Source: Verrucomicrobiota bacterium
GTDB taxonomy: Bacteria > Verrucomicrobiota > Verrucomicrobiia > Limisphaerales > UBA11358
Reading direction: 5' to 3'
DNA: 64,000 nucleotides
NCBI GenBank assembly: GCA_049511835.1
Contig: JBEKXN010000002.1
Location: forward strand, 11,219 to 75,218
Part shown: positions 9,855-39,572 of the stretch, piece by piece
Numbering within the stretch: the first letter of the stretch is position 1
How the letters are laid out: the number at the start of each line of letters is the position of its first letter
Notes under the pieces: generated by a model
What the model saw: only the letters and a program-made list of their open reading frames with translations
What the model was told of the DNA's origin: nothing
The model's database searches: none
Position numbers and translations under genes: made by a program

Positions 9855-11579
9855 ATGAAATTCCGCTGGTCGCTCGCGCCGCCGCAACCGCTCCTTGCCG
9901 GTCAACTGGCGGCGCAGCTCAAAATCCCGCCCCTGCTCGCACAATGCCTGCTCAATCGCGGTTTCAGCGAACCGTCCGCCATTGACAATTTTCTCTCGCC
10001 GCGCCTCAAGAACCTTGCCGACCCTTTTTTGCTCCCGAACATGGCCGTCGCCGTCGAGCGATTGCTCCGCGCCCGCGAACAAAATGAATCGCTGATCATC
10101 TTTGGCGATTACGACGTGGACGGCGTGACCTCCACTGCGCTCCTCGTTGAGGTTCTGCGTCCGCTGGGCTGGAAGGTGGATTTTTATCTGCCCAACCGCA
10201 TGGACGAGGGCTACGGCCTTAGCGCCGATGGCGTCGAAAATTGCCTGAAGAAATTTACCACGACGTTGCTGCTCGCCGTGGACTGCGGCTCAACGGCTGT
10301 GGAAACAATCAACACCCTGCGTTCGCGCGGCGTGGACGTTATTGTGCTCGATCATCATCAGGTTTCATCACCCGCGCCCGCCGCCGTGGCATTGGTCAAT
10401 CCGCAACTCTCAACCCGCAACTCTCAACCCTCAACCACCTTTACCGAGCTTTGCTCCGTCGGTCTCGCCTTCAAGCTGGCGCATGCTTTGGTCAAACGCG
10501 GACGCGAAATTGGCTTGCCTGGCGCGGCGGAATTTGATTTGCGGCCACTGCTCGATTTGGTTGCGCTCGGCACCGTTGCCGACCTTGTGCCATTGACCGG
10601 CGAAAATCGGATTCTCATTTCCACCGGTTTGCAACGCCTTAACCTGACGCAGCGGCCCGGGTTGATGGCGCTCAAGCAGGTCGCACAGTGCCCGCCAACA
10701 CTCGGCGCTTACGAAGTGGGTTTTCAACTGGCCCCGCGCCTGAATGCCGCCGGCCGGCTCGAAACCGCGGAGGAATCGCTGCATTTGCTGCTCGCGCGCG
10801 ATTTGGCCGGGGCCATGCCCATCGCCCAAAACCTCGATTCGCGAAACCGCGAACGCCAGAAGATTGAACGCGGCATCGTCGAAGAGGTCATCGGAGTCGT
10901 TAAATCAAAATTTGATCCGCAGACTGATTTCGTCATCGTCGAAGGGCAATTGCTCTGGCACATCGGTGTGGTCGGCATCGTCGCGTCGCGCGTGCTCCAG
11001 CAATTTTACCGTCCCACGATCATTCTCGGCGGTGAAGGCGGTGAATGGCGCGGTTCGGGCCGCAGCATTGCGGGATTCGATCTGGCCGCCGCGTTGCGGG
11101 AGTGCGGTGATTTGCTCGTGCGGCACGGCGGTCACGCGATGGCGGCGGGCTTGAGCCTTCAGCCGGACAAGATGGACGCGCTCCGGCAGCGGTTGAATGA
11201 ACTGGCGCGCCGCGCGTTGAAGCCGGAAGATTTGCAACCACCGGTGCGTCTCGATGCGGAAGTTGGTTTGGACGAAATGACTTTGGAATCGCTTGGCGAA
11301 CTGGCGTGCTTGAAACCGACCGGGCAGGGGAATCCGCCGGTGCAATTCTGCGCGCGGAACCTCACGCATCAACGTCCTCTCCAGCGCATGGGCAGGGAGA
11401 AACAGCACGTCAAACTATGGGTGACCGACGGCGCCGTGACGCACGAGGCGGTTTGGTGGAATGGCGGCGACAAGTCGTTGCCGGTTGGAAAATTTGACCT
11501 GGCGTTCGCACCGCAGGTCAATGAATTCAACGGCCGCCGCGCGGTGCAATTAAAAGTGCTCGATTGGCGGGCGGCGTAG
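9855..11579 (+). CDS. recJ: Single-stranded-DNA-specific exonuclease RecJ
   Basis: DHH family motifs FGDYDVDGVTS and VIVLDHHQ, the DHHA1 motif GGHAMAAG, and an OB-fold C-terminus. Confidence 0.92.
   Translation: MKFRWSLAPPQPLLAGQLAAQLKIPPLLAQCLLNRGFSEPSAIDNFLSPRLKNLADPFLLPNMAVAVERLLRAREQNESLIIFGDYDVDGVTSTALLVEVLRPLGWKVDFYLPNRMDEGYGLSADGVENCLKKFTTTLLLAVDCGSTAVETINTLRSRGVDVIVLDHHQVSSPAPAAVALVNPQLSTRNSQPSTTFTELCSVGLAFKLAHALVKRGREIGLPGAAEFDLRPLLDLVALGTVADLVPLTGENRILISTGLQRLNLTQRPGLMALKQVAQCPPTLGAYEVGFQLAPRLNAAGRLETAEESLHLLLARDLAGAMPIAQNLDSRNRERQKIERGIVEEVIGVVKSKFDPQTDFVIVEGQLLWHIGVVGIVASRVLQQFYRPTIILGGEGGEWRGSGRSIAGFDLAAALRECGDLLVRHGGHAMAAGLSLQPDKMDALRQRLNELARRALKPEDLQPPVRLDAEVGLDEMTLESLGELACLKPTGQGNPPVQFCARNLTHQRPLQRMGREKQHVKLWVTDGAVTHEAVWWNGGDKSLPVGKFDLAFAPQVNEFNGRRAVQLKVLDWRAA
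10401..10436. repeat. Tandem CGCAACTCTCAACC repeat (reverse complement of the GTTGAGAGTTG motif), in frame inside recJ
   Basis: ccgcaactctcaacccgcaactctcaaccctcaacc is translated as PQLSTRNSQPSTT. The same motif occurs in opposite orientation at 34499-34526 and 37918-37930. Confidence 0.75.
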
Positions 11580-31003: not shown

Positions 31004-31067
31004 ATGAAAAAATACTGGCACGTCATCGGCATCGGGATCCAGAACAACCTGACGTATCGCGTCAATT
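31004..31067 (+). pseudogene. Orphan 5' fragment of the ABC-2 permease gene (direct repeat of 33687-33750)
   Basis: 64 bp with one mismatch to the start of the permease gene at 33687 (atgaaaaaatactggcacgtcatcggcatcggga...gtcaatt). Weaker similarity extends about 55 bp upstream of both copies. Confidence 0.85.
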
Positions 31068-31079
31068 CTTTGGCACAGT

Positions 31080-33458
31080 TCACGGACCGAGCGCGGCGCG
31101 GTAAAAGCGAAAACGATAAACTGCGGAGTTCGGATCGGTGAAATCGTAAATGCCGGCGCTGTTGGTCAGTATCGGCGTCCAAGTAGAAAAATTGGTTGTG
31201 GCTTGAATGAGGTTGGTCTGACCCCCAATTCCGAAAAGCCGCATTCGAAACAGGCCGTTGGTCGCGAAGAGGGGGCTGATTTGCGGCGTGTCGAAATTCT
31301 TCTGCTCGTTCCAGCGCGCGATGTAGAACGATGGCTTGTCACCCATCATTCGGAAACTTCCGCTGGCATAAAGGCTGTTGCCCAAAACACCGAGACCAGA
31401 GATGGAGGGGTTGCTCAGACCGGGATAAGTGGCACCGTTGCCGAGCGCGGACCAATTTGTGCCGTCCCATTTGGCGATGCGATTAACCGGTGTGCCGCCC
31501 ATGTTGGTGAACGTGCCGCCGGCGTAAAGATTCCCGCCCATGGTCGCCAGTCCGTTGATAACGCCGCTGCCAACCAGCCCGCTGCCAAGATTCGTCCAGT
31601 AATTGCCATTCCACAGGGCAATCTTGCTGGCCGCCACGCCGCCGGCATTCGTGAACTGTCCGGCAACATACAAATTGGTGCTGATGACGGCCATGGTGGT
31701 GACGTTGCTGCTAAGTCCCGTGCCCATTACCCATCCATAGGTGCCGTCGAAGCGCATGATATTGTTGCAGCCGACGTAGCCGGAAGGGGGATTGGTATAT
31801 TCACCGAGGTAGAAATAGCCGCCGATGAAAATGTTGGTGCCGATGCAGGCCAACGCGGCCATGCCAAGGTTGGGACCAATAGAAGTTTCCCAATCGGTAT
31901 AAGGCGGAAAGTTGATGGCAACACCCTGCCAGCTCGAACCGTCCCAACGGGAGAAAAACGGGGTGTTGTAATAGCTGACATTGTAAAACGGCGCGCCCAC
32001 CGCATAAACGCCGTTCGAGCGGACGAGAAGGGAAGCCACCACGCCGCCGGGCCCGCTGCCCATCGCGGACCAGTTTGTCCCGTTCCAGGAAGCGATGTTG
32101 GTTACCGGCACACCGCCGGCGTTTGTGAAATAGCCGCCGGCATAAACGTAATTATTGGTGAGGGCGATGGTGAGAATACCGCTGCCGATGGGGCCGCTGA
32201 TGACGCTTGACCCGCTGATGCCGGTGCCGAGCGGATACCAATTCGTGCCGTCGAAGCGGCCGATCAGGTTCACGTTGGTTTGTCCCGCCCAATAAAACGA
32301 GCTTCCGCCTGTGTATAAATTTGTCCCATTGCCAGCCAAAGCCCGGACGGAGGCATAAATGCCATTGATTTGGCCGGCGGTGCCAACGGCATTCCAATTC
32401 GTGCCGTCCCAAGCTGTAAGGCCGTTCATCAATTTGTTGCCTGCTGTAAGAAAATTACCGCCCACATACAGATTGGCTCCGGCAGGATACACCCGCCCCC
32501 CTTGCGCGCTCAATCCGCTGCCGGCGCCAGCCCAAGAGACACCGTTCCACACAGCGAAACGCGATGCGCCGACACTTCCAGCATTCGTAAATGATCCTGT
32601 GGCGCAAATGAGATTGTTGAAAACGGCGATGCTTTGCGCCCCGCTGTTGAAACCGTTCCCAACCAGCGACCAATTTGCCCCATCCCACTTGGCCACTCCG
32701 GAATACGGTGACGACCCGAACAGGCCGCCAGCATACAAATTGCTGCCGTTCAGCATCAGCGAAGTCACGGTGCTGTTAAGACCGCTGCCTAATGCCGACC
32801 AACTCACGCCATCCCAACGCGCCACATTGCTGACCAGCAACGACCCGGCGTTAGTGAACGAGCCTCCGGCATAGACGATGCCGTTGGTGACGGCCAACGC
32901 CCCTACCTGATCAAAATTGGTACCCAACCCGCTACCCAGCACCGACCATGTGCTGCCGTCCCAGCGGCCGATCCGATTCATCGCCAGGCCATCGGCATTG
33001 GTGGTGAAGTAACCGGCCGCATAAAGGTTCCCGCCATCCACCGCCAGGGCGTAAACCGCGCCATTTAAACTGACACTGCTCCAGGTGTTGCCGTCCCACT
33101 TCGCCAAACAGGTCGCCGCCACACCATTCACGTTGGTGAAAACGCCCCCCGCATAAAGCGTGTCACCGACGAAAGCCAGATCATATATCACGGTTATCGG
33201 CGGCCCCGAGAACTGACCGATGCTTGACCATTGCGCGCCATCCCAGACCTGCACCGTCGTATTGGTGTTTGAAACGCCCGTTCCACTGACATAAAGCCGG
33301 CCGTTGTGGGTTGTGACGGCAAGAATGAATCCGCCCGGACCCGGCCAGCCGAACTGCGCGTCCCAATGCTCATCGCCCGGAACTGCGTGCGACGAAAACG
33401 TCGAGAGGAGAAAAACCGCCATACAGCCTGTGTGAGCGAAAGAAATAAACTTTTTCAT
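31080..33458 (-). CDS. Secreted beta-propeller repeat protein (Kelch-like W-x-G/LYAGG-F repeats)
   Basis: Start moved to ATG 33458 (MKKFISFAHTGCMAVFLLSTFSSHA signal peptide). About 14 repeats follow the pattern (I)A.W(D/N)G..WS.LG.G..G.V.AL....LY.GG.FT.AGG. The C-terminal ...FYRAAL type domain is common in PVC secreted proteins. Confidence 0.8.
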   Translation of the reverse strand: MKKFISFAHTGCMAVFLLSTFSSHAVPGDEHWDAQFGWPGPGGFILAVTTHNGRLYVSGTGVSNTNTTVQVWDGAQWSSIGQFSGPPITVIYDLAFVGDTLYAGGVFTNVNGVAATCLAKWDGNTWSSVSLNGAVYALAVDGGNLYAAGYFTTNADGLAMNRIGRWDGSTWSVLGSGLGTNFDQVGALAVTNGIVYAGGSFTNAGSLLVSNVARWDGVSWSALGSGLNSTVTSLMLNGSNLYAGGLFGSSPYSGVAKWDGANWSLVGNGFNSGAQSIAVFNNLICATGSFTNAGSVGASRFAVWNGVSWAGAGSGLSAQGGRVYPAGANLYVGGNFLTAGNKLMNGLTAWDGTNWNAVGTAGQINGIYASVRALAGNGTNLYTGGSSFYWAGQTNVNLIGRFDGTNWYPLGTGISGSSVISGPIGSGILTIALTNNYVYAGGYFTNAGGVPVTNIASWNGTNWSAMGSGPGGVVASLLVRSNGVYAVGAPFYNVSYYNTPFFSRWDGSSWQGVAINFPPYTDWETSIGPNLGMAALACIGTNIFIGGYFYLGEYTNPPSGYVGCNNIMRFDGTYGWVMGTGLSSNVTTMAVISTNLYVAGQFTNAGGVAASKIALWNGNYWTNLGSGLVGSGVINGLATMGGNLYAGGTFTNMGGTPVNRIAKWDGTNWSALGNGATYPGLSNPSISGLGVLGNSLYASGSFRMMGDKPSFYIARWNEQKNFDTPQISPLFATNGLFRMRLFGIGGQTNLIQATTNFSTWTPILTNSAGIYDFTDPNSAVYRFRFYRAALGP

Positions 33459-33686
33459 CTGATTATCCCGGGTCTGAAACGCCATCATGATAGCCGGGAC
33501 ATAGTCATAAGGCAAGCTTTTTTCGCCGATGCATCGTTTTACTTTCTCCTTCGCACTCCAGCCAATCACGACTCCTAACCACCAGCTTCAGCCTGCGCCT
33601 CCTCGCTTTTGAAAGTCGCGGCGGCAATTTACCCGCCTGTTTTCATTCGCAATTTGCCGTTGCGTGGATAAATTTTGCCTGCGCGA

Positions 33687-34493
33687 ATGAAAAAATACTG
33701 GCACGTCATCGGCATCGGGATTCAGAACAACCTGACGTATCGCGTCAATTACCTGACGCGAACGCTGTTCAGCTTCATCCCGCTGTTCGCCATGCTGTCA
33801 CTCTGGCGCACGATTTACGCGGGGAAAGAGCAGGGGAGCGCCCTCGGCGGTTACACCCAGGCGCAGATGATTTTTTATTACCTCATGGTCGCCGTGGTGG
33901 ACGTGCTGACGGCGGTGAACGAGGATGACTGGCAGATCGCGGCGGACATCCGGGAAGGCAACATCAGCCAGTTCCTGCTCAAGCCGATTGATTATCTGCG
34001 GTACCGGCTGTGCCTGTTTTTATCCGGGCGCATCACGTTCATCGCCATGGCGGGCGTGCCGCTGGCCGTGTTCATCTTCTGCTTTCGCGAATATTTTGTC
34101 GGCCCGGCAAACGCAACGGCGCTGCCCGCTTTTGTGATTTCGCTGGTGCTGACGGCGCTGCTGCAATTTTTCATTTCCTACACGATGGCCATGCTGGCGT
34201 TCTGGCTGCTGGAAATTTCCACGTTCATCTTCATCCTGTTCGCGCTCGAATATCTCGCCAGCGGCCATTTGTTCCCGCTTGACCTGTTGCCGCCGGTCAT
34301 CGGGCACGCGCTCTTTTTCACGCCGTTTCCGTCCATGCTTTACGTTCCCATCGCCATTTACATGGGCAAAATAGCCGGGACCGCCATCTGGTTCGGTTTG
34401 CTGGTGCAATTGCTGTGGCTGCTGCTGGCGTATGTCGCCGCCCGGTTTATGTGGCGGCGCGGCGTGAAAAAATACTCGGCTTTTGGAGGATGA
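33687..34493 (+). CDS. ABC-2 type transporter permease (ABC2_membrane_6-like)
   Basis: Start at ATG 33687. Six predicted TM helices and an N-terminal LTYRVNYL motif. Paralogous in layout to 37084-37905. Confidence 0.65.
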   Translation: MKKYWHVIGIGIQNNLTYRVNYLTRTLFSFIPLFAMLSLWRTIYAGKEQGSALGGYTQAQMIFYYLMVAVVDVLTAVNEDDWQIAADIREGNISQFLLKPIDYLRYRLCLFLSGRITFIAMAGVPLAVFIFCFREYFVGPANATALPAFVISLVLTALLQFFISYTMAMLAFWLLEISTFIFILFALEYLASGHLFPLDLLPPVIGHALFFTPFPSMLYVPIAIYMGKIAGTAIWFGLLVQLLWLLLAYVAARFMWRRGVKKYSAFGG

Positions 34494-34498
34494 CGGGC

Positions 34499-34526
34499 TG
34501 AGTTGAAAGTTGGGGGTTGAGAGTTG
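34499..34526. repeat. GTTGA(A/G)AGTTG motif, tandem, 6 bp after the permease stop
   Basis: gagttgaaagttgggggttgagagttg. The same motif lies at 37918-37930 and, reverse-complemented, in recJ at 10401-10436. Confidence 0.7.
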
Positions 34527-34909
34527 AAAGCCAGCAACTGTCGCCGATGCTGTCCGCCAAGACTCACATCCGCGGACAGTTTTTTAATCCGCCACCGAAT
34601 TATTTGCGGGAGATGTCGTCCCGATGGAGCTTGGATTTTTTGCTTTCGTTTTCGACAAAGATGTCGGGCCGGCAGTGCGGGGGTGCGGCTGAATTGAAAC
34701 TTCCAAAAAACTCTCGACACGGTTCGAAAACGGGTGTATTCAGAAAACAGTTGGGGAAATCCGGGCTTCAAAGTGCTGTGATGTTTGGCTGTCTTCTTAG
34801 GGACTCGTGGTTTTCTGTTGGTGCAGGTTCATTCCAATTGCCTGAAAGAATTGGACGTCAACAAACCTTCACGAAAGCGAGGTCCAGAATAAAACCATGG
34901 AATAATTTT

Positions 34910-36922
34910 ATGAAAAGGCCATTTGATTTGATGATTGTTCTCGGTGTCATTTTTCTTACCGCATCATGCGCTACTGATACTGAGAGAAAGATTTACAAAA
35001 CGACAGCAGAACTGAATGATGTCGAGAAATCACTGAATTATTGGGGAAAGGTCGCGATGTCCGAGCCGGTGTTCATTGAAAATAAAGGCCAGTTCAAAGT
35101 TGCCTTTAATGAGGATGCGACCAATTATGTTCAAGCGGCGCGAAGTAACATCAGCGGGGCTTCCCGTTCTGCCTTGGAGACAAGTCTGTATCTGGGTTTG
35201 GCTTTACAGGGCCAGGTTACTCCGCCAATTTCCACCAGTTTAGCTGCCAGTTCAAATTCCACCAATCAATCCGGTGGAGCGAGTTTGCCAAATCAGGCCG
35301 GAGGCGCCTTAAACGCTTTCACGCCACTGCTTGCTTCGGGCGCGCTTGCGCCTGCGATTGATGAACGGCAGGCGGTGCAAAAGGGAATCAATGACAAAAT
35401 AGCCGAGCAACTTCTCGCGTTTATGGCTAATCCAAGTGTCAGCAACAGTGAGCAACAAATTGTTTTTGGAGTCATGCAAATCACCTGCCAGCCGGGACAG
35501 AATACCAAGCATGGATATTTGGCGGATTTGAATGTTTCACTGGGTTATGGGCGTATCCCGGATACAAATTCTCCCTATAAAGAAGATACGGACGGCTTTC
35601 TAGACAGGGACGGCATTCAGGAGAATACGAATTGTTCCCCGGGTATTTTTGCCGTCTTACCACTCGTGGACAGCAGGAATGTCGAGTTACAGAACAGCGA
35701 CCGAAGTCAAATCGAATTGGCATCCGCATTATCAGTGGCCTTCGCGGCAAAGGGGATAAATGCGGCTGCCAAGAGCCTGTCAGACTATGTCAAGCGGCAG
35801 GAATCGGATATGGAGACACGCAATTCACTTCCCGTTGTGACTTCTTATACCGACGGTTCGACTTTTGGGTTTCAGATTTATCCATCGTTTCAAGCCATTG
35901 AAAATCCCAGCAAAGCCAAATCGGCAGACGATGTTTTGGAACCCATTACTTTTCCCGCCGTCGTTGCCATCATCATTAATAAGGAAGCTTACTACTATAC
36001 AACAACAGATTACTCAACGAATTACTATACAACGAATCATGATGAAATAATAACGAATCGTATCGAAGTAACGCCCGGTAATCGTTTAAAAAATCCCTGG
36101 AATTATCTGGTGACCGAATCAGAGACGCGTTGGATTCCCTTTAAACATCCATACTTTGTAAATCATTCGCCTTTTGACAGATTTTTAATGGATAGCTGGC
36201 TTTTCAAGCGTTTGACGGATCCCTCACTTTCTGATCGAGTCAGACGAGCCCAGTTGATTGGCAAAGCAACTGATGCCCTGGACTCGTTGGCTACAAATAA
36301 AATGGTTAGTGATCAACATGAATATCAATTTCAATGTGACCAATTAAAGATCGCGCGTGATTCATTAGAAACGACCGCCTTGGGTCTTCAAGTGGAAAGA
36401 CCTCTGCCTAGTGATCTCGGTGATCTTTTTACGGGCGATGGCAAGACAAACAAACCTAGTATTACAGATGTATTTCCCCATGCCGTCTGGCGTGACACGA
36501 ACACAACGTTCACCATCATTCTCAAAGGGGTGACAAGCAGTGATATTACTGACGTCAACATCGCTGGAGTAAGCTGTCAGGCAAACAGTTCTTATTCTTA
36601 TACTGAGGGCACCAATAGTGGCGTTGTCCTTAATGTGACACTGCCAAATATATTTTACAACACCGCCAACGCTTCCAACACCGTCGAATTCGTCGTCTTG
36701 GCCAAAAATCAACCGCCCATCAGCAAAGTGTTCACTATGCCACTGCAAGGTAAAATTGCCCCTGAAGCGATCGCCACCGTCAACCGGGACACTTCTGGAA
36801 AAGTGTCCGGTCTGGATATTAAACCGGGGCAAAATTTGACGGAGCAGCAACTATTGGATGCGATCAAGGACGTTCTTGAAAAAAGCGAGCCGGTTCCCAT
36901 AACAACCACCATTATCAAATAA
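34910..36922 (+). CDS. Orphan probable lipoprotein, 670 aa, AT-rich
   Basis: Start moved to ATG 34910 (MKRPFDLMIVLGVIFLTASC, signal peptide with Cys). It is clearly AT-richer than its flanks by eye. Contains Ser/Thr/Asn-rich low-complexity stretches. No family recognised. Confidence 0.7.
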   Translation: MKRPFDLMIVLGVIFLTASCATDTERKIYKTTAELNDVEKSLNYWGKVAMSEPVFIENKGQFKVAFNEDATNYVQAARSNISGASRSALETSLYLGLALQGQVTPPISTSLAASSNSTNQSGGASLPNQAGGALNAFTPLLASGALAPAIDERQAVQKGINDKIAEQLLAFMANPSVSNSEQQIVFGVMQITCQPGQNTKHGYLADLNVSLGYGRIPDTNSPYKEDTDGFLDRDGIQENTNCSPGIFAVLPLVDSRNVELQNSDRSQIELASALSVAFAAKGINAAAKSLSDYVKRQESDMETRNSLPVVTSYTDGSTFGFQIYPSFQAIENPSKAKSADDVLEPITFPAVVAIIINKEAYYYTTTDYSTNYYTTNHDEIITNRIEVTPGNRLKNPWNYLVTESETRWIPFKHPYFVNHSPFDRFLMDSWLFKRLTDPSLSDRVRRAQLIGKATDALDSLATNKMVSDQHEYQFQCDQLKIARDSLETTALGLQVERPLPSDLGDLFTGDGKTNKPSITDVFPHAVWRDTNTTFTIILKGVTSSDITDVNIAGVSCQANSSYSYTEGTNSGVVLNVTLPNIFYNTANASNTVEFVVLAKNQPPISKVFTMPLQGKIAPEAIATVNRDTSGKVSGLDIKPGQNLTEQQLLDAIKDVLEKSEPVPITTTIIK

Positions 36923-37083
36923 ATTGTTCCGCAAAAAAAGTGATATAAAAACAATCCCGGAGACGAAGAATATATCAACTTTGCTGGTTGTTCTCAGATG
37001 TGGAGCAGCCGGTTTTGGGCATTCATAAAATTCATTGGCAAGGATGATGCGCGCCGGCTAACTTGTATCGTATCTCATCTTGA

Positions 37084-37905
37084 ATGGTTATTTTTGCCGC
37101 CGAACAAATGAACTTGAAACGTTACCTGGCGATTTACGCCGCTCTGTGGAAGACGTCGGTGACGCGCGAAATGTCGTTCAAAGGCAACTTCCTCCTTTGG
37201 ATTGTCGTCGAGCTGGCCTGGTTCGGGCTGCAACTCGCTTTCGTCGGTGTGATTTTCAGCCAGACCACCACCATCGGCACGTGGACGGTGTGGCAGGTGG
37301 TGCTGCTCACCGGCACGAGCAATTTCATCCAGGAAATTTACCAGGCGTTTTTCCTCGTGAACTGCACGAACCTCTCCGAACTCGTGCGGACCGGCAAAAT
37401 GGATTTCCTGTTGTTGCTGCCGGTCAACACGCGGTTTGTCGTCTCGACGCGGCAGGTGGATCTGCCTTCGTTTGCCAACGCCGCGTTCGCCGTTTGCGTC
37501 ATGATCTACGCGGCGGGGAAATTGCAGCTGCACCCGGCCGCCGGACAACTCCTCGGCTTTGGCGTGTTATGTGTCATCGGGCTTTTGGTGCATTACTCGC
37601 TCATGTTCATGCTGGCCTCGGTGAGCTTTTGGACGGTGCGTGCGCAAGGCATCGTATGGGGCTACTACAGTCTGTTCAACCTTGCGCGAATGCCGGACGA
37701 GGCGTTTCGCGGCGCGTTCAAGGCCGTGTTCACCTTTGCGCTGCCCGTGCTGCTTGTGTCCAACGTGCCTGTGCGCGTGTTGGCGGACAAATTAACTTCG
37801 CCTTCCATGTGGCTGGTGCTGTTGGGCCTGGGCGTCATCTGGGCGCTCATTTCCGAATGGTTCTGGCGGTTCTCCATCCGCCGTTACACCAGCGCGAGCA
37901 CGTGA
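37084..37905 (+). CDS. ABC-2 type transporter permease (second subunit)
   Basis: Six predicted TM helices and an N-terminal REMSFKGNFLLW motif. An alternative start is ATG 37108. Confidence 0.65.
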   Translation: MVIFAAEQMNLKRYLAIYAALWKTSVTREMSFKGNFLLWIVVELAWFGLQLAFVGVIFSQTTTIGTWTVWQVVLLTGTSNFIQEIYQAFFLVNCTNLSELVRTGKMDFLLLLPVNTRFVVSTRQVDLPSFANAAFAVCVMIYAAGKLQLHPAAGQLLGFGVLCVIGLLVHYSLMFMLASVSFWTVRAQGIVWGYYSLFNLARMPDEAFRGAFKAVFTFALPVLLVSNVPVRVLADKLTSPSMWLVLLGLGVIWALISEWFWRFSIRRYTSAST

Positions 37906-37917
37906 GGAAAAAGTCGA

Positions 37918-37930
37918 GGGTTGAGAGTTG
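37918..37930. repeat. GGGTTGAGAGTTG motif, 12 bp after the permease stop
   Basis: Read directly. It is followed by the hairpin ccgccttc...gaaggcgg at 37931-37983. Confidence 0.65.
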
Positions 37931-38001
37931 CCCGCCTTCACTTCGTTTCGGCGCGGTCGCGCCGTAGCCAAAGGCGAAGGCGGAAAGGTTGGCAGTAAAA
38001 T

Positions 38002-38069
38002 GGCTTTCGGTAGAAAGCCGCACTGCTCAAATTCCCCGAATCATCCGGCGGTCTGCCGACCGCCGCTGC
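38002..38069. repeat. REP family B' copy
   Basis: ggctttcggtagaaagcc ... ccggcggtctgccgaccgccgctgc. Compare 14679-14752. Confidence 0.65.
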
Positions 38070-38108
38070 GAACGCGCAACTTGGACGCCTTGTCCGGAAC
38101 CGTGGCGG

Positions 38109-39572
38109 CTATTCGTTGTGCGGAATCTTGATCGTGCTCCCGCCGATGAATTCCCGGATAACGGCGTCCCCCGGGATGAGGTCGCAGGTTAAAAGTTGTT
38201 TCTTCGTAAAACCTTCCACCGATTCGAGCAGCGCCTTTACCCGGTCGTAACGGATGCGCGCGTCGAGAAAGCCCGCGTAAGGCGCGAAATCCTCCGGCTT
38301 GGGCAGCAGACCGCCTTCCCCGATGAAGAACGGTTTGAGCGCGGGCAATTCGAAGGGAAATCCGCCGTTGATGATGTAATCGCCCAGTCCCATGAGCGGG
38401 ATGATGCTGAACAGCTCTCCGTAACGCACGTAATGCCAGTGCAAAATCGTGCGCAGCGCGCTGTGGTTGCGGTGGCGCGCGTCACGCAACATGCGCCGGA
38501 TGAGACGCACATCGGTGAACTGCGTGAGCCGGTTCGTGCTCCCGTCGCCTTCGTACAACACGTTCAGCGTTTCGATGTAGAGACGGAATTGCGCGGAGGC
38601 ATCAATCCCTTCGGTGATGGGCGGGTAAAACCCGTGCAGGCAATCCAGCAAAAGAATCTGGTCCGGCTCAAGCCGCACCTGCCTGGTGCCTACGCGCCGG
38701 CCTTCCTTGAAACTGTAAATCGGTTTTTCAACCGTCTGCCCCTCGAGCAGCGCCCGAAGGTGCTGATTCAACAACTGAATGTCCAGCGCTTCCGGCGTCT
38801 CGTAATTCCGGTCATTGATCCAGTCGGTCGGATGCTCGACCAGCGACCAGAAATAGTCGTCGAGATTGAGCATCAAAAAACGCAGGCCCTGTTTTTCGAG
38901 CCGCTGCGTCAGCTTGACCGTCGTGGTTGTCTTGCCGGAGGAACTGGGGCCGCTCACCCACATCATCCGCAAACGGTTGCCCGCGTTCAGCCGCGCCAGG
39001 ACTTTCTGCGCCGCCTCGTCCAGCGACCGTTCATAGGCATCCAGCGACGCAACGATCACCTCCTTGATGCGCCCGCTGCGGACCGCGTCGTTCAGGCCGG
39101 CCACCGTGTCCACCCCCAGCCGCCGATTTTCTTCGAGGATTTGTTCCATCCGCTCGCGGGGAAAACCGTTGCCGGCGAATTTTTCCGGCGTCAACGCTCC
39201 CTCCCGCAGCCAATGCCGTCCCCAGCGATAACATTCGTAGGCATCGGCGGTGTTCTGGAAACCGTAGCTGCGCAGCGTGTGCAACACCTCGTCCTGGATG
39301 GACTCAATCGTCGGCGGAAAATTTGAAATCAGGTGATGCGGGTCAGAGTTGAGGCAGACGGTGGCCGCGTCCGCCAGAAAACCCGCGATGTTTTCATCCG
39401 AAACCTGTGCGCTGAAAATCTTGTCGTTAATGCCCGGCAGAAAATCCCGGTGAAAACCGCCGATGGATTCCGCGGCGCGCAAAATGGCCCTGCCGATGCG
39501 GTCCGAATCGAATTTGACCAGCGCCCGGTTGCGCTTCTGGACCTTGACAATGCGGTTTTGTACTGGCATCAC
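38109..39572 (-). CDS. ATP-cone domain fused to a uridine kinase/phosphoribulokinase-family P-loop kinase
   Basis: The N-terminal IVKVQKRNRALVKFDSDRIGRAILRA resembles an ATP-cone. A P-loop VSGPSSSGKTTTT follows, then LNLDDYF as in the PRK/UK family. Confidence 0.7.
   Translation of the reverse strand: MMPVQNRIVKVQKRNRALVKFDSDRIGRAILRAAESIGGFHRDFLPGINDKIFSAQVSDENIAGFLADAATVCLNSDPHHLISNFPPTIESIQDEVLHTLRSYGFQNTADAYECYRWGRHWLREGALTPEKFAGNGFPRERMEQILEENRRLGVDTVAGLNDAVRSGRIKEVIVASLDAYERSLDEAAQKVLARLNAGNRLRMMWVSGPSSSGKTTTTVKLTQRLEKQGLRFLMLNLDDYFWSLVEHPTDWINDRNYETPEALDIQLLNQHLRALLEGQTVEKPIYSFKEGRRVGTRQVRLEPDQILLLDCLHGFYPPITEGIDASAQFRLYIETLNVLYEGDGSTNRLTQFTDVRLIRRMLRDARHRNHSALRTILHWHYVRYGELFSIIPLMGLGDYIINGGFPFELPALKPFFIGEGGLLPKPEDFAPYAGFLDARIRYDRVKALLESVEGFTKKQLLTCDLIPGDAVIREFIGGSTIKIPHNE

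Follow-up and report, generated by a model that had tools for sequence, protein, structure and literature searches.

The locus described here touches on two sets of published observations. The first concerns a three-gene operon encoding a natA-like ATPase (COG4586) together with permeases of COG3694 and COG4587; its function is unknown, and riboswitches for guanosine tetraphosphate (ppGpp) control it in some Firmicutes (PMC6003355). The second is promoter reuse in prokaryotes, or 'putative mobile promoters', where a very similar promoter-like upstream sequence precedes non-homologous genes both within and between genomes (PMC3575422). We analysed a stretch of 64,000 nucleotides (the window, to whose positions all coordinates refer unless another contig is named) from a Verrucomicrobiota bacterium (assembly GCA_049511835.1, contig JBEKXN010000002.1), in which two ATP-binding cassette (ABC) permease genes of the ABC-2 type, perm1 and perm2, are separated by an AT-rich island that holds the gene of a predicted 670-aa lipoprotein. 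The genome is a metagenome-assembled genome (MAG) of 3.8 Mb in 91 contigs with a GC content of 57%, and the locus lies inside a 179-kb contig. Related genomes and individual loci are denoted by G and L numbers, respectively, and the genome of the window by G000.

We propose, with a probability that we put at about 0.68, that the island is a foreign, self-contained cassette carrying its own promoter-like module, that its lipoprotein is independent of the transporter, and that the transporter is intact and dispersed, with its ATPase encoded in trans. The sequence-only reading of this stretch missed the conserved promoter-like module in the spacer before the lipoprotein gene, by which the island can be recognised as belonging to a pool of cassettes.

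Compared with the three-gene operon, the permease families (PF06182) and the type of ATPase are the same, but here the genes stand at three or more separate places, the ATPase gene is fixed behind dnaA across the order and the permease genes are split by foreign DNA. The ppGpp riboswitch of the Firmicutes operon is a further difference, since no riboswitch was found at this locus; an Rfam scan of 33000-38500 gave no match. For the module, promoter reuse by putative mobile promoters is the closest published concept. As in those cases, a near-identical upstream sequence stands before 51 non-redundant, non-homologous cargo open reading frames (ORFs). Unlike them, the module belongs to a single genus-level clade of peat Verrucomicrobiae, defence-type genes are enriched among its cargo, and it occurs in hairpin-separated same-strand arrays and at hot spots of cargo exchange.

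Integron gene cassettes are similar in being single-gene units with variable cargo, sometimes in arrays, with a repeated sequence between units. In the present case, however, the repeated sequence lies 5' of the cargo, is promoter-like and lacks an attC-like folded inverted repeat, and the boundaries are staggered and do not fall at one crossover point. No integron integrase was seen beside the module (no profile search for integrases was made on the cassette contigs). Finally, the locus resembles defence islands and single-gene islets at core-gene hot spots in that low-GC accessory DNA lies between syntenic core genes, the same junction has different content in sister species, and many cassette cargos belong to known defence families. 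It differs from them in that the cargo in the window is a lipoprotein without a known defence family and the hot spot lies inside a former operon.

The island and its promoter-like module

Three co-directional ORFs on the + strand make up the locus: perm1 (33687-34493), the lipoprotein frame and perm2 (37084-37905). The gap between the permease genes (34494-37083) measures 2,590 bp and both proteins match PF06182, which bears out the earlier description of two paralogous ABC-2 permeases about 2.6 kb apart. When the junction was aligned to the tight junctions of two congeners (G017 and G001), the left edge of the island was placed near 34533, just after a heptamer array, because homology to the tight G017 junction stops just past that array. 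The right edge lies near 37070-37107, homology to the region upstream of perm2 in G011 resuming at ~37070. At its right end the island carries an AT-rich spacer 3' of the lipoprotein gene (36923-37083, + strand, 41.6% GC) that has no similarity to any relative or cassette locus, and no right-end sequence shared among cassettes was found for 36900-37110.

A 54-nt stretch of the upstream spacer matched the region upstream of perm2 in another genome (G003), and this match led to the module. The 80-bp module (34698-34777, + strand) consists of an A-tract, the putative -35 hexamer TCGACA (34714-34719), a 17-nt spacer, the putative -10 hexamer TATTCA (34737-34742) and the start of a conserved leader; its consensus is AAAAAnTCTCGACACGGTTCKGAAATGGGCGTATTCAGCnAACAGTTGGAAAATCCGGGCTTCAAA. 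Model R1 of the module scores the copy at 64.4 bits (E 1e-18, the E-values of this model being rough), and this copy is the only one in the window and in the genome. A structured RNA was considered and ruled out, since the module has neither a stable, conserved consensus fold (-2.25 kcal/mol) nor covariation, and the lack of a conserved RNA structure fits a signal at the DNA level. We infer that the module functions as a promoter.

The module was found in 28 of 61 congeners, in 1-7 copies each, and in 51 contigs of peat and wetland metagenomes. In every examined case it points towards an ORF whose start lies 11-165 nt downstream. These 51 non-redundant cargo ORFs are mutually unrelated (mean column identity of 6% when aligned together), and their median GC content at third codon positions (GC3) is 0.49. 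About one third of the genes behind the module are of defence type, as judged from family names. The cargo includes XhoI, GmrSD, Cap4 nuclease, CAP12-type and other TIR proteins; KAP and AAA_15/21 NTPases, OLD-type TOPRIM, DUF5131 and TcmP-like (PDC-M41A) proteins; and AriA-, GajA- and AbiL-like proteins, a Tle1-like phospholipase and several small lipoproteins.

To its left, the module is flanked by many different genes. Three recurrent hot spots were found at which a constant left flank and the module are followed by differing cargo, homology ending at about +55 to +61 from CTCGAC. Two or three module copies also occur in same-strand arrays, in contigs L210 and L173 and in several genomes, and in these two contigs each copy is preceded by a terminator-like hairpin. 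The L210 and L173 arrays look like tandem accretion at one site. L210 (reverse complement, 1080-2145) holds three hairpin-module-cargo units with small cargo, namely a DUF3892-like ORF, a 50-aa ORF and DUF5131, while in L173 (480-1330) two units lie within a ~230-nt repeat that also covers the 3' end of the left-hand gene.

Between the module and the lipoprotein start codon lies a leader (34778-34909, + strand). Module and leader together (34705-34877) align at 73% with the leader of a cassette that carries a different, 203-aa lipoprotein (L184, L226). A motif GGACGTCAAC..CCTTCACGAAA (GACGTC..CCTTCACGAAA) is present at 34850-34880, ~30-60 nt before the start codon, and is common to the window, the other lipoprotein cassette (L184) and the locus of the closest homologue of the 670-aa lipoprotein, on a 45%-GC contig (L074); it may act as a signal for the translation or regulation of lipoprotein genes. 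In a subset of cassettes conservation also extends beyond the module into the stretch ...GCCATGTTGTTTCGGCTGTTTTTGA... (34778-34830 in the window; also L172, L174, L191, L201, L214 and L235). This stretch could encode a mini-ORF (MLFRLFLIHGF-like), a candidate leader peptide, or it may be conserved at the DNA level. In the window and L235 alike, the candidate mini-ORF continues in frame into the lipoprotein ORF; in L172 a stop interrupts it. The idea that the module travels with the lipoprotein family was ruled out, the module being absent upstream of 12 lipoprotein homologue loci (three of which have <240 nt of upstream sequence).

We therefore consider the following course of events for the proposed cassette insertion. 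Linkage of the transporter genes has been lost stepwise, from a contiguous operon to one with the ATPase gene apart, then with the ATPase gene fixed behind dnaA, and lastly with the permease genes apart. In this genome 2.6 kb of foreign DNA has entered the perm1|perm2 junction; it would be an expression cassette made up of the 80-bp promoter-like module, a leader of ~130 nt and one cargo gene for an envelope lipoprotein with a putative IPT/TIG domain. Since the same module stands before many unrelated, mostly low-GC and often anti-phage genes, the lipoprotein would be transcribed from its own module and would act apart from the transporter, probably at the cell surface. Transcription of perm2 might occur by read-through or start in the AT-rich 3' spacer, and the transporter would still work with an ATPase supplied in trans.

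Several observations weigh against this proposal. Promoter activity is read solely from the two hexamers and the distance between them, from the A-tract and from the module's orientation. A sigma-70 scan did not call the module, whose -10 hexamer ends in A, and the sigma-70 and terminator scan of the region gave no more hits than shuffled sequence did. Beside the island there is no recombinase or transposase, and its flanks show neither terminal inverted repeats nor a target-site duplication; there is likewise no second copy of the island DNA in the genome, and there are no flanking direct or inverted repeats. Since the genome holds one copy of the module, recombination between resident copies cannot explain the insertion. 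At one hot spot or more the module appears to be a core EamA gene's own native promoter, and it may be an ordinary promoter that gathers foreign genes and not a mobile unit. The link between the lipoprotein and defence is by association only, PADLOC having no match for the lipoprotein.

The hot spot with the EamA gene also bears on an alternative that we consider unlikely, in which the module is not portable. It would instead be the binding site and promoter of one regulon, for example that of an alternative sigma factor or a defence regulator. Many loci would have evolved or retained it, and the lipoprotein gene would have landed behind such a promoter or acquired one. The spacer between the -35 and -10 hexamers is almost invariant, as would suit the binding of a protein. 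The module lies, at one hot spot, directly before the high-GC3 EamA gene, and other strains have foreign genes inserted behind the module. Conserved sequence moreover gives way to cargo-specific sequence at staggered points, about +31, +59 and +100. On the other hand, a genome has 0-7 copies, and 33 of the 61 congeners have none; left flanks are many and different, the cargo is mostly of low GC3, and same-strand arrays have hairpins between their units. Copy number, flanks, cargo GC3 and arrays fit accessory cassettes better than a conserved regulon.

Taking the island as a foreign expression cassette again, the data raise the tentative possibility of a promoter-first gene-cassette system, undescribed so far, in a genus of peat Verrucomicrobiae. 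Each unit would consist of a terminator hairpin, followed by an invariant promoter with its leader and by a single variable gene. Such units might be exchanged at hot spots and stacked in arrays, forming a shared pool of anti-phage and surface genes, and the 670-aa lipoprotein would be cargo for the cell surface, with a possible part in phage exclusion. What the analysis reveals is a constant promoter-like module before dozens of unrelated, defence-rich genes in uncultured peat Verrucomicrobiae. If the module is indeed a portable expression unit, it would provide a handle for finding accessory and defence genes in these genomes, and it may provide an off-the-shelf promoter for a phylum in which genetic tools are scarce.

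The predicted 670-aa lipoprotein

The lipoprotein gene (34910-36922, + strand) encodes a signal peptide with a lipobox, an undescribed alpha/beta core, an IPT/TIG-like immunoglobulin (Ig) domain and a small C-terminal domain. Its frame is open from 34517; the real start is the ATG at 34910, all homologues starting at the equivalent methionine. The N-terminus, MKRPFDLMIVLGVIFLTASC, carries a lipobox that is common to the homologues (MKRPFDLMIVLGVIFLTAS-C), in which the cysteine and the hydrophobic region are conserved. The sequence-only reading had described the protein as a member of no recognisable family, encoded by DNA of lower GC, and on both points it was right. There was no match in Pfam, NCBIfam, PHROGs, PADLOC or the PDB sequences, and the gene has 46.0% GC against 57% in the genome. 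Its GC3 is 0.47, that of the flanking permease genes 0.79, and only 0.4% of 2-kb windows of the genome have a GC content equally low or lower.

That reading had also suggested profile searches and structure prediction for the lipoprotein; the family libraries searched gave no match, and structure comparison recovered an Ig-like domain only. A first AlphaFold2 model, built from 18 sequences, was too poor for use, with a predicted local distance difference test score (pLDDT) of 58. With a 66-sequence alignment, pLDDT rose to 78.5 and the predicted template modelling score (pTM) was 0.68. Searched with Foldseek against PDB and BFVD, the model gave matches only for the Ig-like domain at residues ~515-613, the folds hit being of Ig and IPT/TIG type. 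The TIG domain was matched in 37 of the 66 family members (best 2e-17), the protein of the window lying below the Pfam threshold. For the core of ~350 residues, at about 150-500, there was no match in Pfam, the PDB sequences, the PDB fold library or BFVD. The protein resembles the IPT/TIG surface lipoproteins of Verrucomicrobiota, which are annotated only as 'IPT/TIG domain-containing protein', in its lipobox, its C-terminal Ig-like domain of probable IPT/TIG type and its occurrence in environmental genomes only; it differs from them in its confidently modelled core of ~350 residues, which matches nothing in the searched libraries.

None of 60 related genomes, among which are 36 congeners, encodes the lipoprotein or its core domain; in these genomes the family profile matches TIG domains only. 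Across the phylum the core was found in 2 of 250 sampled genomes, and a close relative of the lipoprotein occurs in 4 of 185,579 species representatives (three Verrucomicrobiae and one Acidobacteriota MAG). There are 22 close homologues with 40-57% identity, and a profile extends the family to 531 representative clusters, all unnamed or labelled 'IPT/TIG domain-containing'. The locus thereby exposes a rare, unannotated lipoprotein family of ~500 clusters, with a confidently modelled core to which no known fold was matched. Seven genomic contexts of homologues show the gene on its own and never near an ABC-2 permease. Several of these contexts hold serine recombinase, SIR2 and AAA_15/21 genes, an IS110 element, prophage remnants, or DUF5131 and toxin-antitoxin-like genes. 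Both its composition and its phyletic distribution show the lipoprotein to be foreign cargo.

It had been suggested that the transporter has newly recruited the lipoprotein as a substrate-binding or accessory partner, in which case it would be co-transcribed with the permeases. Lipoprotein partners are common in ABC importers, the gene lies on the same strand between the permease genes, and no strong terminator is predicted on either side of it. Nevertheless, this proposal has become highly improbable. All 60 relatives that keep the transporter lack the lipoprotein, the seven homologue contexts are without ABC-2 genes and the gene is foreign in composition, from which it appears that the lipoprotein is not a partner of the transporter. 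The protein also lacks a family (Pfam, NCBIfam) or fold of substrate-binding proteins, Foldseek matching the Ig-like domain only, and its gene has a promoter-like module of its own, common to unrelated cargo.

The ABC-2 transporter and its ATPase

Both permease genes encode intact ABC-2 permeases. The perm1 product (33687-34493, + strand) is of the COG4587/COG3694 type and matches PF06182 with a Pfam E-value of 4e-22, and perm2 (37084-37905, + strand) matches the same family at 5e-46. Their PF06182 (ABC2_membrane_6) scores are 79.5 and 157.7 bits, respectively, compared with a curated cut-off of 22, and each covers the whole model; no other PF06182 gene is present in the genome. The two proteins share 22% identity and are distant paralogues, as expected of a COG4587/COG3694 pair, each with its own series of orthologues among the relatives, so that they represent two different subunits. 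Within the genus, perm1 is 72-93% and perm2 72-91% identical to its orthologues. Comparison of start codons with congeners places the conserved start of perm2 (MNLKRY) at the ATG at 37108. Measured against four congeners, the ratio of nonsynonymous to synonymous substitution rates (dN/dS) is 0.13-0.22 for perm1 and 0.11-0.16 for perm2; both permeases are under purifying selection. By sequence comparison the pair is shown to be the predicted membrane part of a three-component ABC-2 system (COG4586 ATPase and COG4587/COG3694 permeases).

No ABC ATPase gene adjoins the permease pair in this genome or in the relatives, as had been noted for the window. A search of the whole genome for the cognate ATPase, which had been put forward as a check, found a single COG4586-type gene on a different contig, directly downstream of dnaA. 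The assignment was made through a second, diverged permease pair in another genome (G038, locus L090) that retains its ATPase directly upstream: the gene at G000:C12:82356-83333 (325 aa) is 62% identical to this operon-linked ATPase, the next best candidate reaching 38%. The dnaA-ATPase pair occupies G000:C12:80857-83333 in the same orientation, and ClpX and ClpP lie beyond it. Each of 40 relatives was compared, the ATPase gene being single-copy with 66-94% identity, and in the order it lies directly behind dnaA in 27 of 29 loci, on another contig than the permeases or far away from them. ATPase and perm2 also vary together, both being present in 33 genomes and neither in 5, with 3 discordant (Fisher p = 1.6e-4). 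In sister orders of the class the ATPase gene stands alone and not by dnaA, and the canonical ATPase-perm1-perm2 operon is present in other classes of the phylum. The three genes accordingly do not form a contiguous operon in this genome, the ATPase being on another contig and the permeases 2.6 kb apart, and the absence of an ATPase in cis is an old and stable trait of the lineage and not a local loss.

The order of the permease genes was compared among relatives, as had also been advised. In other families of the order they are adjacent in 11 of 13 loci. Within the genus, by contrast, the junction is broken in 14 of 21 genomes: it is tight (<100 nt) in 7, holds an insert of 0.3-1.1 kb in 4 and one of 2.6-3.9 kb in 2 (the window and G022), and in 8 perm1 lies on another contig or tens of kb away and is still intact. 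The inserts differ from one genome to another: a DUF559-like ORF with palindromes of the repetitive extragenic palindrome type in G011 (L024), a hemerythrin-like ORF with a 65-aa membrane ORF in G010 (L033), the 65-aa membrane ORF alone in G008 (L032), and, in G022 (L026), 3.9 kb that encode an AraC-like regulator and contain a disrupted NTPase-like ORF.

These results divide the suggestion that the operon is being dismantled into two parts. As a statement about gene order it stands, given the order-wide position of the ATPase behind dnaA and the broken junctions; as a statement about decay, in which the permeases would be turning into pseudogenes, it does not, the three genes being intact and conserved. 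Decay would agree with the separation of the permease genes from the ATPase gene and from each other, with an apparent frameshift of perm1 in G004 and with a TAA inside the perm2 match in G003. Both ORFs are nevertheless full length here and match the Pfam model end to end, permease dN/dS is 0.11-0.22, the conserved ATPase co-occurs with the permeases, and perm1 is intact even when it lies on another contig. Decay of the transporter is thus very hard to reconcile with the data, and we conclude that the gene order of the transporter is dispersing and that its genes are not decaying. An assembly or binning artefact, that is, a chimeric join in a contig of a 91-contig MAG, to which the aberrant GC of the island might point, is scarcely credible, since the island lies inside the 179-kb contig between genes that are neighbours in relatives, its flanks are correctly oriented with the downstream ATP-cone kinase gene syntenic, other congeners have different inserts at the same junction, and a chimera would seldom happen to insert just one whole gene, leader included, between two intact ORFs.

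The locus presents an ABC transporter that persists under selection through stepwise loss of its operon, a clean natural case against a need for co-transcription. It also links an uncharacterised transporter to dnaA, the same transporter being under ppGpp control in Firmicutes. Downstream of perm2, a gene for a fusion of an ATP-cone with a PRK/uridine-kinase domain (38109-39572, - strand) is syntenic in G011, G017, G022 and G001 at 85-91% identity and marks the conserved right flank.

Heptamer arrays and the propeller gene

The heptamer array at the perm1 stop (34500-34530, + strand) consists of four GTTGRRR units, reported by Tandem Repeats Finder as 4 copies of period 7 at 34500-34527. It is the sole tandem repeat of the spacer, so that 'repeat-laden', the word used for this spacer in the sequence-only reading, was too strong. 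A second motif, GTCGAGG GTTGAGA GTTG, follows perm2 (37913-37930, + strand). GTTGAGAGTTG is present at 34516 and 37920, with a copy carrying one mismatch at 34502. The motif noticed after both permease genes is therefore real, but it is not specific to the island: arrays of 3-5 GTTGRRR heptamers occur ~26 times in the genome, compared with ~0.5 expected, usually 0-30 nt from the ends of ORFs. For the same reason GTTGAGAGTTG was ruled out as an attachment site. Another such array lies in the window at 10404-10435. The same junction carries other heptamers in congeners, GTCCRAA in G017 and G001 and GCAGAAG in G016, and in G017 and G001 the array seems to encode an N-terminal extension of perm2 (MSPKSEVQSPKPES...).

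On the other side of perm1, and divergent from it, lies the gene of an 829-aa beta-propeller-like protein (31080-33569, - strand) with a weak match to the Rax2 propeller in Pfam. An orthologue with ~54% identity occupies the same divergent site by perm1 in G016 and G004, and is not found there in G017 or G011. On the far side of the propeller gene is a 64-bp stub (31004-31067, + strand) that duplicates the 5' end of perm1, being identical to 33687-33750 at 63 of 64 positions; an upstream stretch, more diverged, is likewise duplicated. The duplicate, together with the presence of the propeller gene beside perm1 in some congeners only, shows that a second rearrangement has touched the locus.

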